Shown piece by piece: positions 5,663 to 12,925 of a DNA stretch of 20,382 nt. The number at the start of each line of letters is the position of its first letter. Positions within the stretch are counted from its first letter, which is position 1. Under the pieces are notes generated by a model that saw nothing but the letters and a program-made list of their open reading frames with translations, ran no database searches and had not been told where the DNA came from. The position numbers and the translations under genes are program-made. This DNA is from an uncultured Verrucomicrobiota bacterium. Lineage in GTDB: Bacteria; Verrucomicrobiota; Verrucomicrobiia; Limisphaerales; Palsa-1400. The stretch is from the NCBI GenBank assembly GCA_964558455.1, contig CAZLEE010000067.1:1-20382 (forward strand). Reading direction: 5' to 3'.

Positions 5663-6440
5663 TTAAAATGGTCGGGGCGGTGAGGTCAGGGTTGCGATCT
5701 GGTCGAACGGCGAAAGGCGCGCATTTGGACCAGGGCCGTTTTGAAAAAAGGTTCGCCGAAAAGCTCGTGCCCGGTGCTCTTGGGGGTTTTGGGGGCGAAG
5801 TGATCGTGCCTCAACCAGCCGTCCACCAGCGCGGAGGAAATCCGCCCGCGCGCGGCCCATCGGCCATGTCAATCAAAACGTTGCCCGGGCCGGTGTCAAA
5901 GGCCAGCACGCGCGGCTGGCCGCCTTTGCGCCAATCGAGGGATGTGACGTTGCTGATGCCGCCCAGATTATTGACGCAGACGTGGGTGCCGCGCCGGGCA
6001 AAAACAAATTGGTGAAACAACGTCGCCAGCGGAGCGCCCTGCCCGCCCGCCGCCATGTCGGCTGCGCGAAAATTGCTGACCACCGGCGCGCGCAACGCCT
6101 CCACCAGATAGGCGGGTTCGCCCAGTTGCAACGTGGCCGGCGCATCCGGCGACGGATTATGGAAAACCGTCTGACCGTGCAACCCGGCATAATCCGGGCG
6201 CGCGATTTTTTTCCCCCTGGGCCGGGCGTGCAAGGCGTAAAAGCGGCCCAAATCATGGTGCAATTGCGCGAGCGGATAGCAGGACAAATCGCCTCGCGCC
6301 GCGGCGTGCAGGGCGGCCCGGAGCGGTTTGGGAAAGTCGGCGGACCAGAGATGAAGCAACCGGATGGCTTTGCCGTCGATTGAAGGCTGAAGACTAAAAT
6401 AAAACGTGGCGTAATCGGAGAAGGCGTCAGACCAGAGCAC
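5663..6440 (-). pseudogene. anmK: anmK (anhydro-N-acetylmuramic acid kinase) remnant. It is truncated at the 3' end, frameshifted, and has a degenerate N-terminal phosphate-binding loop.
   Basis: ORF 5811..6440 (GTG start) translates with a strong match to the AnmK core: GLHGQTVFHNPS...ATLQLGEPAYLVEALRAPVVSNFRAADMAAGGQGAPL...VCVNNLGGISNVTSL...VLAFDTGPGNVLID. The frame then ends in an unrelated 20 aa. A different frame (5663..5872) carries AnmK-like ...FDQIATLTS and stops at 5663, which is exactly where the convergent SNF2 gene ends. The roughly 100 C-terminal residues of AnmK are absent in every frame. The N-terminal loop reads FSLQPSIDG instead of the canonical GxMSGTSLDG. Confidence 0.7.
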
Positions 6441-6510
6441 GGTTCGTTTGAGGGTTGACTAAGAGTGCGAAAAAGTTATAGGCGCATCATGCCAAGGCAG
6501 TTGCAAGTGC
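6441..6510 (+). repeat. Copy A of a conserved ~70-bp element. It reads GGTTCGTTT...TTGACT-N16-TATAGG...ATGCCAAGGCAGTTGCAAG.
   Basis: It aligns to copy B (8803-8870). The core TTGACTAA(A)GAG.GCG/CGTAAAAAGTTATA is about 90% identical. Flanking GGTTCGTTT and a downstream ATGCC..G..AGTTGC..G are also conserved. The -35 TTGACT is at 6455-6460 and the -10 TATAGG is at 6477-6482 with a 16-bp spacer. Confidence 0.7.
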
Positions 6511-6586
6511 AGTGCATCAGTCCTCACTTTTTAAACCATCCTGTTTACGCCTCCACACGTCCACCGCCACCGCTCCCGCCGCCAGA

Positions 6587-8590
6587 CTAACTCTTGGGTT
6601 TGGCTGGTGCTGCTTCTGTTGCGGCGGGTGCGTTCAGAGATTTGGCAAACATCCCCGTCAATGTCGCCATCAATCCGTTAGCGGCGTTCCCATCGCCATT
6701 TCCACCCGTCACCAGGATGTTGGGCATGAAGGGTACGGTGCCGCGGGAGAGCACGTCGGCCACGTTGACCAAGGCGGTTTGGGCCTGGCCAAGAGCAGAA
6801 ACCTGTTCTTTGTACGCTTTGGCTTTGGCCAATCCGACCGCTTCCACTTCGGCGGCTTTGGCGGCGCCGGTGCGGGAGGTGAAGGTGGCCTCGCCATCGG
6901 CTTCGGCTTTGCGGGCCTTGGCATTGTTTTCCTTGATGGAAATCTCGACTTCCGAGCGCGCCAGCGGGCTTTGCATATCAGCGGTGCCCTTGGCTTTTTC
7001 CATTGCCACGCGGCCCTTCTGGGCTTCCTCCTGTTTTTGGAACGTGGCGATTTGTTGATTGGCAATCTCGCGTTCGGTCAGCACCCTGACCAGGTCTTCC
7101 GGCAAAATGACGTCCTGGATGTAAACGCCGCGCGTTTCAACGTCATATTGGGCCAGTTGAGCTTGAATGTGTTTGAAAGCTTCCTGCTGAACTTCCTGGC
7201 GAGTCTCGATGAATTGGATGGCATGCATGGACCCCAACTTGTCGCGAAAAAGGTTGCCCACGGCGGCCTGAAGCACATCGTCCACAAGGTTCTTCATGGT
7301 TCCCACCATCGAGATGACCTTGGGCGCCTTGGTGTCGGGCACATGGATGAGGACCTGCAAATCAATTTTGAAAACGAATCCTTCGTCGCTCTTGGCGACA
7401 ATGGGCTGGAGGTTTTTGTCCAGGCCATGAGCGCCGGTGACTTCGGCGGCCCAATCCAGCTTGAGGATGGCCGTCGGCACAACCTCTGCCTTGTAGATGC
7501 GCGGATTGATGGCGTACTTGCCGGTACGCAACGGGTCTTCCCAAAGACCGCGATGGCCCGGTTTGACCAACGAACCAAATTTGAAGTTCGGTCCGGAGGT
7601 GTCTTGCGTGACCAGTCCGACGTAGGCTTTGATGGCAGCAGCTTCACCCTGTTTGACCACCAGCATGGGGACGGTTTCCACCCGCACCAGGAATGGGTTC
7701 AGAGTGTAGGCCCCGTAGCGGAGGACATCGTGCTGCAAACCCATTTTCCCGCCGGCATTCAGGAAGGCCTGGAAGTCTTGGTAATTATTGTGAGACGCAT
7801 TTTTATCGCCTAACAGCACTTCGATGAGCTTCTGGTCGTCAGCACCCTCCAGTTCGAGCTTTTCCATGTCTCCAAACCCGCCCAGACGACTGGCAATGTG
7901 ACCGGACTCAAGGGGATCACCTTCGAGCGTCGTGACCACGCCCACCACATCGAGCTTTTCCTCGCTGCCCTGCTGTAATTGCGGTTCGACCCGGAACACA
8001 TCAAGTTGTCTGGGTTCGAGATTGAAGGAGGCGGGCGTCAGCCTTTCATCTCTTCCCTCGAACGCCTGAAGATCGCGAGAAATGGGAAGCCCGAAGACTT
8101 TGTTCTTGGTGATGACCAGGAACGCAACCGGGTGAATGGGCAAAAGACTGCCAGGAGCCAGAACCGGACGTTGAACCCCTTTTTCGCCCTCGTTACTGAT
8201 GAAGCCGGGGAGGTCCGTGAAGTTCCCAAATTCCTTTTTATAGCGGGCGGACTTCGCCCCGGCAGGCAAGGTTTTGCCGACTTGGGCAATCAGGACACCG
8301 ATTTCGTTGGCCGGCACCTGGACCCAGGGAAATTTTTCCACTTTGTATAGGAACCACCATTTGAAACGTACACCCGGCATCAGGAGTTCCGCCTGATAAC
8401 CGGCCTCACCTTGGAACGCAACAGGATTGTCGGTTGGCAGCTTGTGGCCGAACCGCTTCATGACCAGACCGACTTCCGCCGGTCCAACGATGCGAATGGA
8501 CTTCCAGACAGTCAAAAATATCAACACGGCCAGCGCCGTAATTTCCAAGGCCAGGATGGGATGGGCCATCAGAATTGGCATAATGGGCAT
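6587..8590 (-). CDS. Flotillin-family SPFH/band-7 domain membrane protein. ATG start at 8590; the ORF track begins at an upstream in-frame TTG at 8680.
   Basis: The ORF is 667-697 aa. It has an N-terminal hydrophobic hairpin (PILALEITALAVLIFLTVW), an SPFH domain (EVGLVMKRFG...VPANEIGVLIAQVGK...) and a long charged coiled-coil region (QQIATFQKQEEAQKGRVAMEKAKG..., ARKAEADGEA..., AKAKAYKEQVSALGQAQ) typical of flotillin/YqiK-like proteins. The sequence MPIMPILM immediately precedes the membrane hairpin, which makes ATG 8590 the more plausible start. Confidence 0.85.
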   Translation of the reverse strand: MPIMPILMAHPILALEITALAVLIFLTVWKSIRIVGPAEVGLVMKRFGHKLPTDNPVAFQGEAGYQAELLMPGVRFKWWFLYKVEKFPWVQVPANEIGVLIAQVGKTLPAGAKSARYKKEFGNFTDLPGFISNEGEKGVQRPVLAPGSLLPIHPVAFLVITKNKVFGLPISRDLQAFEGRDERLTPASFNLEPRQLDVFRVEPQLQQGSEEKLDVVGVVTTLEGDPLESGHIASRLGGFGDMEKLELEGADDQKLIEVLLGDKNASHNNYQDFQAFLNAGGKMGLQHDVLRYGAYTLNPFLVRVETVPMLVVKQGEAAAIKAYVGLVTQDTSGPNFKFGSLVKPGHRGLWEDPLRTGKYAINPRIYKAEVVPTAILKLDWAAEVTGAHGLDKNLQPIVAKSDEGFVFKIDLQVLIHVPDTKAPKVISMVGTMKNLVDDVLQAAVGNLFRDKLGSMHAIQFIETRQEVQQEAFKHIQAQLAQYDVETRGVYIQDVILPEDLVRVLTEREIANQQIATFQKQEEAQKGRVAMEKAKGTADMQSPLARSEVEISIKENNAKARKAEADGEATFTSRTGAAKAAEVEAVGLAKAKAYKEQVSALGQAQTALVNVADVLSRGTVPFMPNILVTGGNGDGNAANGLMATLTGMFAKSLNAPAATEAAPAKPKS

Positions 8591-8802
8591 AAAAGATTTC
8601 TTTTCTGTTGAGTGGTCTGCATCGTGATCTGTGCGGGATTTTGGGCTGATTTCGGGCTCTTGCAAGCGTTTTTCGCTCAAGAGCTACATACCGCTGGTCG
8701 TTCGCAAAGGCGAGGCGGTCTCGCAGAATACCGGCAGAGCCGTGTTCGTTTATGGTCTTTGCGATGAGCGCAATAGCCCGTCCGAGGGGTCACCCATGGC
8801 AT

Positions 8803-8870
8803 GGTTCGTTTCTGTTGACTAAAGAGCGTAAAAAGTTATAAGCCAACTATGCCGCGAAAGTTGCGGGTCT
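8803..8870 (+). repeat. Copy B of the same ~70-bp element. It reads GGTTCGTTT...TTGACT-N16-TATAAG...ATGCCGCGAAAGTTGCGGG.
   Basis: The -35 TTGACT is at 8815-8820 and the -10 TATAAG is at 8837-8842 with a 16-bp spacer. It is in direct orientation relative to copy A, 2362 bp away. It lies about 400 nt upstream of lysS and 125-280 nt upstream (on the opposite strand) of the flotillin start. Confidence 0.7.
8815..8842 (+). promoter_or_regulatory. Near-consensus sigma70-type promoter (TTGACT-16-TATAAG) oriented towards lysS
   Basis: The hexamers match 6/6 and 5/6 of the TTGACA/TATAAT consensus with near-optimal spacing. A twin promoter in copy A (6455-6482) points antisense into the flotillin gene. 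Confidence 0.45.
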
Positions 8871-9135
8871 GAGCTTCCGTCCGCCATCCGCCCTATCAGA
8901 CCTATTCGTTGTGTTTACCCTATTCTTCCGCCCCTCCCGCGCTGTCCGCCAGATAATACTTTTCGCAAAATATTTTCAAATGTCTTTTTACTATCAAATA
9001 CACTAGTTGTGGTTTTAGTCTAACGAATATTTAAAACCATGAACTCAAACCAAACGCCCCAGCCAGCCATTGTTCCCGGTTTCTGTTTTCTGCTTTCCCA
9101 ATTTCTGCTTTTCCCGCCGCCTTTTCCCATTCCGA

Positions 9136-9175
9136 TTTCAGCGTTTCAGCGTTTCAGGATTTCAGCGTTTCGCCC
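9136..9175. repeat. Tandem octamer repeat (TTTCAGCG) x about 5 in the lysS 5' region
   Basis: The repeat reads cgaTTTCAGCG TTTCAGCG TTTCAGGA TTTCAGCG TTTCGCCC. It is preceded (9078-9132) by phased TTTCTG(C)/TTTTCCC T-tracts. Confidence 0.8.
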
Positions 9176-9251
9176 CCTCCCACCCTTCCGCCTTTCATTT
9201 CGGACGCGGACTTTGTAGCATCGACCTGAATTAAGAGATTGAGAGATTATT

Positions 9252-11132
9252 GTGGCAACGAATCCTTTGATAGAAATACGCAACGGTCGTGTCGGCAAAG
9301 CCGACGCGCTTCGCACCCTTGGCCTTAACCCCTATCCGTCGCGCAGCAAACGCACCCATTACGCCAAAACCATCCTGACCGATTTCGACAAGCTGAATGG
9401 GCAGGTCGTCACCGTGGCGGGCCGCCTGCTCTCATGGCGAAAACAGGGCGCCTTGGCCTTCGCCCATTTGCAGGACCAAACCGGCAAACTCCAATTATTC
9501 CTGCGCAAAAATCTGGTGCAGCCCACCCAGCCCGACACCGCCACCCTCGGCTATGCCAATATAAACCTGCTCGACATCGGCGACATTGTCGAAGCCACCG
9601 GCAAGGTCATTCGCACCGAACGCGGGGAAATTTCCGTCCTGGTTGAAACCCTCCGCATCCTGACCAAGGCCATCCGCCCGCTGCCGAGCCAATGGTCGGG
9701 CTTGAAAGATCGCGAACAGGTTTTGCGCAAACGCTACCTCGATTCCATCCTGGAACCGGAATCATTCGTCCGATTCGGCGTCATCAGCAAAATGGTGGCC
9801 GACATCCGCACCTTCCTGAACGAACGCGGTTTCATGGAGTTTCAAACCCCCATCGTCCAACCCCAATACGGCGGCGGCACGGCCAAACCTTTCAAAACCC
9901 ACGTCAACGCCCTCGGCTCCGAAATGTACCTCGCCATTTCGCACGAGCTTTACCTGAAACGGCTCGTCGTCGCCGGGTTCGACAAGGTCTATACCATCGG
10001 ACGCTACTTCCGCAACGAAGGGATGGACCGCAGCCATCATCCCGAATTCTCCATGGTCGAAACCATGGCGGCCTACGAGAACTACGAATACAACATGAAC
10101 CTGATCGAGGACATGTTCCGCCACATCGCCACCAATGTTTTTGGCCGGACGGAATTTGACGTGCGCGGGCACAAGGTTGATTTTGCCAAACCGTGGCGGC
10201 GCATCAGCATGTGCGACGCGGTGCAGGAAAAAACCGGCATCGATTTCCGAACCTGCCCCTCGGTGGAGGCGGCCAACGCCCATCTCGCCGCCTTGGGCGT
10301 CAAAGAATCACAACCCAGCATCGGCGAGGCCCTGGTCAGCGCCTTTGAAGCCACGGTGGAAAAGGATTTGATCCAGCCGACATTGGTTTTTGGACACCCG
10401 ATTGAAATTTCGCCCCTGGCCAAACCCATGGCTGCGGACCCCCGCTTTGTGGAGCGTTTCGAAATTTTCATCGCCGGCATGGAGTGCGGCGATAATTGGT
10501 CCGAACAAAACGACCCCGTGCGCCTGCTCGAAACGTGGCGCAAATCCTATCACGCCGACGAACGCGACGCGGGAAAATTCCACACCCTGGACTTCGATTT
10601 CCTTGAAGCGCTTGAATACGGCATGCCGCCCACCACCGGTATCGGCCCCGGCATTGAACGCATGGCGATGATCTTCACCGGTCAGGAAAATATTGATGAC
10701 GTCATCTTTTTCCCCATGATGCGCCCCTCCATTTCGCCCTTGAACGCGGCCATTTACGGCGTGCCCGAAAATTCCGCCGCCCCCGTGGACGACCTTGCTC
10801 TTTCCTTTGATGAGTTTGAGGCCCTTTGCGCCGCCGGGTCGCTCAAACCGGCCACCCGCAATCTCCTGGTCAAACCGCACCTGCGCGTCTGGAAAACAAC
10901 CGCCGCCGGCGGCAAATCCGCCGTCTCGGCCCACGCTGAAATCGAGGGCTTCCTGCCCAACGGCGTGTTGCGCGTCGCCGGCTGCAAAATCCAGCCCGCC
11001 GAAATTTCGTCTGAGGACGACCAGAAAAAAATCTCCGATTTCCTGGAAAAATCGTGGGGAACATTCCTCCACAAAAAATTCCCGGACTGCGAATCCATCG
11101 TGTCTCTGGCCACGGTGTTGGGCCAGGGCTGA
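9252..11132 (+). CDS. lysS: Lysyl-tRNA synthetase, class II, with a C-terminal extension of about 130 aa
   Basis: The 626-aa ORF has a GTG start. It carries the anticodon-binding OB fold (VTVAGRLLSWRKQGALAFAHLQDQTGKLQLF), class II motif 2 (YTIGRYFRNEGMDRSHHPEFSMVE) and motif 3 (GMPPTTGIGPGIERMAMIFTGQENIDDVIFFPMMRP). After the canonical end of the enzyme there is a tail with no recognisable motifs. Confidence 0.93.
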   Translation: MATNPLIEIRNGRVGKADALRTLGLNPYPSRSKRTHYAKTILTDFDKLNGQVVTVAGRLLSWRKQGALAFAHLQDQTGKLQLFLRKNLVQPTQPDTATLGYANINLLDIGDIVEATGKVIRTERGEISVLVETLRILTKAIRPLPSQWSGLKDREQVLRKRYLDSILEPESFVRFGVISKMVADIRTFLNERGFMEFQTPIVQPQYGGGTAKPFKTHVNALGSEMYLAISHELYLKRLVVAGFDKVYTIGRYFRNEGMDRSHHPEFSMVETMAAYENYEYNMNLIEDMFRHIATNVFGRTEFDVRGHKVDFAKPWRRISMCDAVQEKTGIDFRTCPSVEAANAHLAALGVKESQPSIGEALVSAFEATVEKDLIQPTLVFGHPIEISPLAKPMAADPRFVERFEIFIAGMECGDNWSEQNDPVRLLETWRKSYHADERDAGKFHTLDFDFLEALEYGMPPTTGIGPGIERMAMIFTGQENIDDVIFFPMMRPSISPLNAAIYGVPENSAAPVDDLALSFDEFEALCAAGSLKPATRNLLVKPHLRVWKTTAAGGKSAVSAHAEIEGFLPNGVLRVAGCKIQPAEISSEDDQKKISDFLEKSWGTFLHKKFPDCESIVSLATVLGQG

Positions 11133-11135
11133 TCT

Positions 11136-11915
11136 TTATTTGGCCCCGATTGCGGCCGGCGGCATCCCCGGCAAGTGCCATGCCTCCCGCAGCCGCGCAT
11201 ATTCGGGTTGGGGCAGTTGCACCAAAATCGGATGAGCCTGCGCGTCCAGCCAGGCCACCACGGTTTCAATGTCGCTTTCGCTCATGGCCGTGCAACCGGT
11301 GGTTCCGTGTTCCGGCCCAAGCCAGATATGCATAAAGACGCACGACCCGCCCCCCGGCACAGGCGGCGACGTATTATGTTCAATCACCACGCCCAGGCGA
11401 TACTGCCCGTTGCTCATTCTCATTTTTTCCGAACTGGTCCAGTCGGGTTTCGGCACGGAAGAGCGTTCCAGGACCCGGTTGTAACTGGCGGATTTTGGGT
11501 CGTCCACACATTCCAGGGTTCCGGTGCATTGGGTGTAGGGCATTTTTAGCGCGCCCATTTTTTCCAAAGGCGCGTAGCCAAAAGTGGCAAGCAATTGGAA
11601 TGCGCCGGCGGGAGACTTGCGGTCGCCTTCCTTCTTTTGCGGCCCCGGTTCGGGCATGGGATGCACCCCGGCGCCCCATCCCATTCCATTCCGGCCCACC
11701 ACAATTTGAATCGACGGTCCGACCGCCTGCCACAAATTGCTGTTCAACTCAAAGCGCTGCAGGCGGCCCCCGACGGCCTGCCAGTCCTTGGTTACAACCA
11801 AAATCATTTGCCGCGGCGGTTGCGGCGTGGTGAAAGCCGGCAGGCCGGTTCCGGCCCCGGCCAGCGGCGCCAGCAACAAGACCGGGCCGGCCAAAGTAAA
11901 AAATCGCATTTTCAT
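11136..11915 (-). CDS. Secreted L,D-transpeptidase-like (YkuD-fold) protein
   Basis: The ORF is 259 aa with an N-terminal signal peptide (MKMRFFTLAGPVLLLAPLAGAG). Its C-terminal region GGGSCVFMHIWLGPEHGTTGCTAMSESDIETVVAWL fits the catalytic signature of L,D-transpeptidases (H...(S/T)xGC). The gene ends 3 nt after the lysS stop on the opposite strand. Confidence 0.6.
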   Translation of the reverse strand: MKMRFFTLAGPVLLLAPLAGAGTGLPAFTTPQPPRQMILVVTKDWQAVGGRLQRFELNSNLWQAVGPSIQIVVGRNGMGWGAGVHPMPEPGPQKKEGDRKSPAGAFQLLATFGYAPLEKMGALKMPYTQCTGTLECVDDPKSASYNRVLERSSVPKPDWTSSEKMRMSNGQYRLGVVIEHNTSPPVPGGGSCVFMHIWLGPEHGTTGCTAMSESDIETVVAWLDAQAHPILVQLPQPEYARLREAWHLPGMPPAAIGAK

Positions 11916-12127
11916 TCTCTTTCAGTTGACGACTGAACCCATTATAACGCAAGCTGTAACACAGGTGAGCAACAAGGATAGAGATTTGTATTATTTGTTC
12001 CCCGGCCAAGGCCGGGGAAAACGGAGGCAGTTTATTCATTTGGCGGTGGCGTTCATCGTGGGACTGGGCGCGGCCGGGGCAATAGCGGCGCTCTGCTACT
12101 GGTACTCCAACAAGGGACCATAAAGCC

Positions 12128-12925
12128 ATGGCCATCCTTACGGTGACCGGCCTGACCGTCCAGCGCGGCGGCTCCGTCATTCTTGATCGTATCCGCTGGC
12201 AGGTCATGTCCGGGGAGCATTGGGCCATTCTGGGCGCGAACGGTTCCGGCAAAACATCCCTCCTCAGCGCGTTGACCGGTTATTTGACTCCGACGGACGG
12301 CGAGGTGGAGTTGTTATCGCATCGCTACGGCGCCGCCGATTGGCGGGAGTTGCGCAAGAGAGTCGGTCTGGTCAGCTCAACCGTCCGGCAAAAGATACCG
12401 GAAGACGAACCGGCGCTCGAGACGGTCATCAGCGGACGCCAGGCCATGATTGGTTTTTGGGGGCGCATAACCGCATCGGATCGAAAACGCGGTCTGGCCA
12501 TTCTCAAGGATATCGGGTGCGCGGACTTGGCGGACCGGCCCTGGCTTTACCTTTCGCAAGGGGAACGACAGCGCCTTCTGATCGGCCGCGCCCTCATGGC
12601 GCGCCCGGCGTTGCTGATCCTGGATGAGCCGTGTTCCGGGCTTGATCCGGTCGCGCGGGAACAATTCCTGCAATTCCTGCAAAACCTGGGGCATTCCCCC
12701 AAACCACCCGCGATGGTGCTGGTCACTCATCATACCGAGGAAATCATCCCCGTCTTCTCGCACGTCTTGGTTCTGCGCCAGGGCCGCGTCCTCGCGGCCG
12801 GGGAACGAAGGAAAACGCTGACCTCCCCCATCCTATCGCGCGCCTTCAACGCCGACATTCGTTTGACAAGGAGAAATGACCGCTACCGGATTGAAATCCG
12901 CCGCAAAAGCAAAAAGCCGATGTGA
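12128..12925 (+). CDS. ABC transporter ATP-binding protein (orphan ATPase with no adjacent permease)
   Basis: The ORF is 265 aa. It has Walker A GANGSGKTS, the ABC signature LSQGERQR, Walker B LLILDEP and an H-loop LVTHH. Confidence 0.9.
   Translation: MAILTVTGLTVQRGGSVILDRIRWQVMSGEHWAILGANGSGKTSLLSALTGYLTPTDGEVELLSHRYGAADWRELRKRVGLVSSTVRQKIPEDEPALETVISGRQAMIGFWGRITASDRKRGLAILKDIGCADLADRPWLYLSQGERQRLLIGRALMARPALLILDEPCSGLDPVAREQFLQFLQNLGHSPKPPAMVLVTHHTEEIIPVFSHVLVLRQGRVLAAGERRKTLTSPILSRAFNADIRLTRRNDRYRIEIRRKSKKPM

Follow-up and report, generated by a model that had tools for sequence, protein, structure and literature searches.

The 20,382-nt stretch of DNA analysed here, from an uncultured Verrucomicrobiota bacterium (contig CAZLEE010000067.1; referred to throughout as the window), carries a flotillin-like gene that is bracketed by two diverged copies of one intergenic segment, units A and B, each of which includes a promoter-like core. 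The segment is duplicated in the window, its surroundings are mosaic, and the neighbouring genes lysS, flotillin and anmK are independent of it. The account that we favour, to which we give about an even chance of being correct, is that the units are old paralogous copies of a single non-coding segment of ~175 nt, one on either edge of a flotillin module that has been relocated or duplicated and is situated in a strain-variable region.

A diverged direct repeat around the flotillin gene

A pattern scan of the window with GTTGACTAA-N7-AAAAAGTTATA returns exactly two occurrences, at 6454-6480 and 8814-8840 of the + strand, and the same pattern has no match in 100 dinucleotide shuffles even when three mismatches are allowed. 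The unit pair is also the sole notable long-range direct repeat of the window in a repeat search (family D3). Local alignment of the robust parts of the two units (Table 1) gives a score of 55, compared with 18.5 +/- 2.4 for 200 shuffles, none of which exceeds 27, and chance similarity is refuted by these figures, its probability being practically nil. Gapped extension to the right ends of the units scores 40.5 against 30.2 +/- 3.9, a value that 2 of 300 shuffles reach, and alignment found no homology past either pair of ends (6595/8961 on the right and 6422/8785 on the left). The original prediction of an element present in direct orientation on both sides of the flotillin gene is thus confirmed in its coordinates and strand; its length had been put at ~70 bp, which is too short, the robust part being ~100 nt and the whole, with the gapped extension, ~175 nt. 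Overall the units are ~67-70% identical; the -35/-10 segment reaches 87% and the remainder 61-69%. The same structure is seen in two more assemblies of this strain (L001 and L002), whose identity to the window is 99.97%, and the arrangement is therefore not an assembly artefact.

Unit A occupies the entire gap between the anmK fragment (see below) and the flotillin stop codon. Unit B lies between flotillin and lysS, at a distance of 195-371 nt from the flotillin ATG on its upstream side. In the alignment the right end of unit B resembles the final flotillin codons and stop that are found at the right end of unit A, and this resemblance, together with the filling of the gap by unit A, fits a duplicated 3' flank of the gene. 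No further copy of the unit was found in 324 kb of related loci by nhmmer, using either a profile or single sequences. Exact scans for the core in public collections, which do not include the source genome, gave 14 matches in genome_contigs, 19 in metagenome_contigs and one in viral_contigs; all of these are single occurrences in unrelated AT-rich DNA, lack the flanking blocks, and were rejected as further copies. A blastn comparison with plasmids and phages gave no match.

Table 1. Positions of the repeat units and neighbouring features in the window
Feature	Position	Strand	Remarks
Repeat unit A	6422..6595	+	Robust 6422-6523, gapped tail to 6595
Repeat unit B	8785..8961	+	Robust 8785-8882, gapped tail to 8961
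Copy A core	6455..6491	+	TTGACT 6455-6460, 16-nt spacer, TATAGG 6477-6482, ATG 6489 = predicted +1
Copy B core	8815..8851	+	TTGACT 8815-8820, 16-nt spacer, TATAAG 8837-8842, ATG 8849 = predicted +1
33-codon open reading frame	6489..6590	+	Copy A; MPRQLQV, MPRQLQVQCISPHF...PPPD; lacks a Shine-Dalgarno sequence; 4-nt overlap with flotillin stop
7-codon open reading frame	8849..8872	+	Copy B; MPRKLRV*
anmK remnant	5811..6440	-	Pfam AnmK profile positions 31-194 of 367 only
Flotillin-like SPFH/Band_7 gene	6587..8590	-	667 aa; between units A and B
Flotillin promoter-like motif	8638..8665	-	TTGCAA-16-CAAAAT; conserved with L044 and L046; travels with the gene
(TTTCAGCG)x4.5 tandem repeat	9136..9171	+	Spans 9160/9161, where sister homology begins
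lysS proximal promoter-like motif	9194..9221	+	TTCATT-16-TAGCAT, TG before it; conserved in L040, L056 and sister strains
lysS	9252-11132	+	

Neighbouring genes and the strain-specific junction

Copy B had been proposed to drive lysS through a leader of ~400 nt, a proposal that the comparison with relatives contradicts. The gene has a proximal promoter-like motif of its own, ~30 nt ahead of its start, and this motif is kept in two relatives (L040 and L056) whose LysS proteins are 81-83% identical. Sister contigs (L059-L061 and L003-L006), with 97.4-98.3% nucleotide identity to the window, are homologous to it from 9161 rightwards only, so that their homology begins at the 9160/9161 junction, ~30 nt ahead of the lysS motif. 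Left of the junction, in the position that flotillin and the repeat units (copy B included) occupy in the window, the sister strains carry a gene for a Y1/IS200-like transposase of 151 residues (Pfam PF01797, E = 2.7e-20; NCBIfam IS200/IS605, 53.5 bits against a cut-off of 55). This RAYT-like transposase (L060 1-940, L059 1-730) is flanked by inverted REP-like hairpins and is followed by a partial second copy of its own 5' end. A search with nhmmer found no copy of the unit in the sequenced loci of the sister strains, nor was any kinship found between the units and their IS200-like element. Since the sister strains lack copy B, it is not needed to express the essential lysS gene. The upstream side of lysS is likewise a synteny breakpoint in L040, L056 and L057, and the unit is absent upstream of lysS in these three as well as in the sister strains.

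Two further observations concern this region. The last unit of the tandem repeat that spans the junction is loosely like GGTTCAGACCGT, a sequence that the sister strains have at their truncated transposase end. LysS itself, here and in the relatives, has ~620-630 residues; the match to the class II catalytic domain stops at residue 490 and the ~135 C-terminal residues have no Pfam match.

The flotillin gene also has a conserved promoter-like motif, which, like the gene's Shine-Dalgarno sequence, falls in the 85 nt ahead of the ATG; both are common to relatives in other genomic contexts. Copy B lies farther upstream than this motif, 195 nt or more from the flotillin ATG, and the suggestion that it serves flotillin as part of a bidirectional promoter is not borne out. 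Homologues of flotillin, at 90% or more amino-acid identity, are present in no fewer than four further contexts (L041/L062-63, L044, L046-51 and L052-55). Nucleotide homology to the window stops there at the flotillin gene or at the 85-nt promoter region in front of it, and the unit does not travel with the gene. Neither PADLOC nor NCBIfam gives a match for flotillin.

Other repeats accompany the flotillin homologues elsewhere. In L046 (9176-9209 and 12019-12055), and likewise in L047-L051, a 35-nt direct repeat of ~92% identity brackets a segment made up of a 180-aa open reading frame (ORF) and the flotillin gene. It contains a perfect 9-bp hairpin, GCGGCTTTC-TGCC-GAAAGCCGC, has only two copies in 22 kb, and one of these adjoins the flotillin stop codon, as unit A does. 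In L042 a REP-like repeat, GGGAGCCTCGCCCTCC, is present five times in 22 kb (6716-12155), in inverted pairs, and it too flanks a flotillin homologue. The NUDIX/lpxC context is an abundant one, with at least 24 contigs, and gene calling there splits the flotillin homologue into two ORFs that overlap, of 161 and 511-520 aa (L041 3270-5263, L062/L063 9543-11563), a sign that the gene is frameshifted or that a sequencing error recurs.

On the other side of unit A, the gene that had been read as anmK is, as judged from its sequence, an internal gene fragment and not an intact gene. It corresponds to residues 24-187 of a 360-residue AnmK, with 79% identity, and lacks both the N-terminal GxMSGTSxD nucleotide-binding motif and the entire C-terminal half. 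The remnant is wedged between an SNF2 helicase gene and unit A, and unit A adjoins the point at which the anmK homology fades. Because anmK is a fragment, the bidirectional promoter role that had been conceived for copy A has no target. Taken with the results for lysS and flotillin, the units are most likely not the principal promoter of any of the three genes.

As to the wider window, ARAGORN finds no tRNA in it, and no integrase or transposase Pfam family is present among the main ORFs scanned, with the ORFs of 1-2900 having no Pfam match at all. The latter region contains no ORF longer than 211 codons, only successive short + strand ORFs in differing frames, and could represent either non-coding DNA or the decayed remains of a gene. 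The nearest homologues of AnmK and LysS carry source labels of Limisphaerales, Verrucomicrobiae or Verrucomicrobiota.

The promoter-like core and the short reading frames

The spacing between the -35 and -10 boxes is the same in the two copies, as is that between the -10 box and the ATG, whose A is the seventh base past the -10 box. As this places the ATG at the predicted +1, a transcript from either core would be leaderless. The likeness to a sigma70-type promoter is evident in the -35 box, which agrees with the consensus TTGACA at five of six positions in both copies, in the 16-nt spacer, within the usual range of 16-18 nt, in a -10 box that starts with TATA (and so has A at position 2), and in a +1 that is 7 nt past the -10 box. 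The units differ from such promoters in that both have G where the -10 box should close with its strongly conserved T, and in that no downstream gene needs them; the conserved promoter-like motifs of lysS and flotillin both end in T, unlike the -10 boxes of the units. Both sites are missing from a standard promoter scan because this T is absent, and it is only under relaxed criteria that the two cores rank top among the promoter-like sites of the window. The geometry of the original prediction therefore stands, while its description of the cores as near-consensus was generous and its ranking of them as the best in the window holds under those relaxed criteria alone. To judge from these motifs, the core may be a real promoter, possibly an orphan one of sigma70 type directed rightwards. 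Readings as a sigma54 or extracytoplasmic function (ECF) sigma promoter, a LexA box, an IHF site, a dif/parS site or a T7-like promoter were rejected in a check by eye, since none of them fits both copies.

Both of the predicted short ORFs that begin at the cores, of 33 codons in copy A and encoding MPRKLRV in copy B, are present. The 33-residue product of copy A has no homologue among 1.84 billion representative proteins, and in all six frames of both units there is no shared ORF beyond the seven-codon MPRxLxV. Five of the seven residues are kept between the copies despite seven nucleotide differences, which random changes achieve in 2.5% of cases (nominal p ~0.025), a statistic chosen post hoc and to be taken as a hint only.

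The tails that follow the ATG contain 36-38% C and 17-20% G, and each unit pairs a promoter-like core with a tail that is rich in C and poor in G. Rfam gives no match in the whole window at E<=1. The only sub-threshold match, CRISPR-DR41 on copy B, was set aside as chance, since its 20.8 bits fall short of the gathering score of 36, copy A is left unmatched and no repeat array is present. Neither strand of either unit gives a fold signal (z-scores -0.6 to +1.3), the two units have no terminal inverted repeats or inverted repeats in common, and no intrinsic terminator was found. The whole interval 8850-9190 has a strong C>G skew on the + strand. Between unit B and lysS, the segment 8950-9050 is unusually A+T-rich and lies within 300-nt windows of ~47% G+C, the contig having ~58% G+C.

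Origin of the units and comparison with known systems

Under the duplication account, a flotillin module consisting of promoter plus gene would have been placed in a rearrangement-prone region just upstream of the lysS promoter. The units could then have arisen by tandem duplication of flotillin with its 3' flank, followed by loss of one of the gene copies, or by duplication of local sequence upon arrival of the module. In addition to the reality of the repeat, the filling of the gap by unit A and the resemblance of the unit ends, this account draws on the spread of flotillin over four or more other contexts, where homology stops at the module edges, on the identical core geometry of the two copies with the ATG at the predicted +1, on the C-rich, G-poor make-up of the tails, on the breakpoint at the upstream side of lysS, where ~98% identical sister strains are wholly different left of 9161, on the separate motifs of lysS and flotillin, and on the lack of a further copy in 324 kb. 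Several points weigh against it. No relative with an empty site that would fix the order of events was found, the similarity of the unit tails is of modest significance only, and neither -10 box fits the TAnnnT pattern. The extra conservation of the core has a Fisher p of 0.008, yet 23% of random placements equal it, so that it is not significant once corrected for the choice of window, and was rejected as a sign of selection. Finally, with public collections that lack the source genome, some doubt is owed to a dispersed repeat family, which we consider unlikely.

Such a family would be a lineage-specific, non-palindromic intergenic repeat of low or medium copy number, and recombination among its copies may have caused the rearrangements. 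The units sit at rearrangement junctions, the copies are ~30% diverged compared with a strain split of ~2%, as expected of old family members, and related genomes do have REP-like dispersed repeats flanking the same gene (e.g. L042). Against this, the 20.4 kb contain just two copies, both beside one gene, none was found in the 324 kb of related loci, the core matches in public collections are all flank-less, AT-rich chance matches, and the units have neither terminal inverted repeats nor a hairpin; we rate this explanation as improbable. The fallback of the original prediction, a lineage-specific cassette or miniature repeat, may still apply; the promoter geometry of that prediction holds and its links to specific genes do not.

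No more probable than a dispersed family, and well behind duplication in our estimate, is that the units are functional regulatory promoters. Copy B would then be a distal lysS promoter in which a leaderless 7-codon ORF and a rut-like leader mediate Rho-dependent attenuation, and copy A would produce a cis-antisense RNA on the flotillin 3' end. The identical geometry of the two cores, the retention of MPRxLxV and the C-rich, G-poor downstream region free of a detected intrinsic terminator are what this leads one to expect. It is opposed by the sister strains, in which copy B is missing and lysS has just its proximal motif, and by the relatives, none of which conserves the unit upstream of lysS; the Lys codon of copy B is moreover Gln in copy A, both -10 boxes lack the final T, and the peptide statistic is post hoc. 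We regard it as far less likely still that the units are att- or attC-like recombination sites bounding a mobile flotillin cassette. Direct repeats do bracket a single gene that is found in many genomic contexts, and the 35-nt repeat of L046-L051, different in sequence, brackets a flotillin segment as well. The window, however, has no integrase or transposase gene or tRNA by the searches described above, the copies are ~70% identical and without the long exact core of attL/attR sites, there is no imperfect palindrome of attC type, the flanking repeats differ in sequence among contexts, and the unit does not accompany flotillin in its other contexts.

An equally remote prospect is that the promoter-plus-gene module of flotillin is itself mobile in these Verrucomicrobiota and inserts with a target duplication of tens to more than 100 nt. 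Were this so, it would explain why the flanking repeats differ, being ~100-175 nt here and 35 nt in L046-L051, and the unit would be a duplicated target that chanced to be a leaderless small-transcript promoter.

Returning to the duplication of a local segment, the cores could still have consequences if they are active. From copy A one would expect a short transcript antisense to the 3' end of flotillin, and from copy B a C-rich untranslated transcript toward lysS that would probably be terminated early; a pair of cores that fire would be a natural case of promoter duplication yielding an antisense transcript. As direct repeats, the units could also permit loop-out deletion of flotillin. The finding is of little significance alone, and it shows that a tidy pattern of a promoter flanking a gene can be a leftover of local duplication in a strain-variable region and not regulatory design. 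It corrects three annotations that might otherwise be made, namely that copy B serves as promoter of lysS, that copy A does so for anmK, and that anmK is intact.

Among known systems, leader-peptide and Rho-dependent attenuators of the tnaC type resemble copy B in having a tiny ORF and then, before a gene, an untranslated stretch rich in C and poor in G. They differ in that neither the sister strains nor the relatives keep the copy B arrangement, a promoter-like motif belonging to lysS lies downstream of it, the copies do not share the Lys codon, and copy A has no downstream gene. REP/BIME, ERIC and Correia/NEMIS elements and miniature inverted-repeat transposable elements (MITEs) are, like the units, short, non-coding and intergenic, and are found at gene ends and rearrangement junctions, and some dispersed families, Correia elements among them, bear promoter-like boxes. 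The units differ from them in lacking a palindrome or terminal inverted repeat and in being known from two copies, with none found in relatives. A further parallel is with the flanking direct repeats that tandem or segmental duplication leaves when one gene copy then decays, which is matched by two diverged non-coding flanks in direct orientation around one surviving gene, by the adjoining of one copy to the stop codon, and by the gene fragment and strain-specific junctions nearby; the difference is that a second flotillin copy has left no detectable remnant beyond ~9 nt. The units are best classed as an intergenic segment duplicated locally, a footprint of genome plasticity of a known kind.

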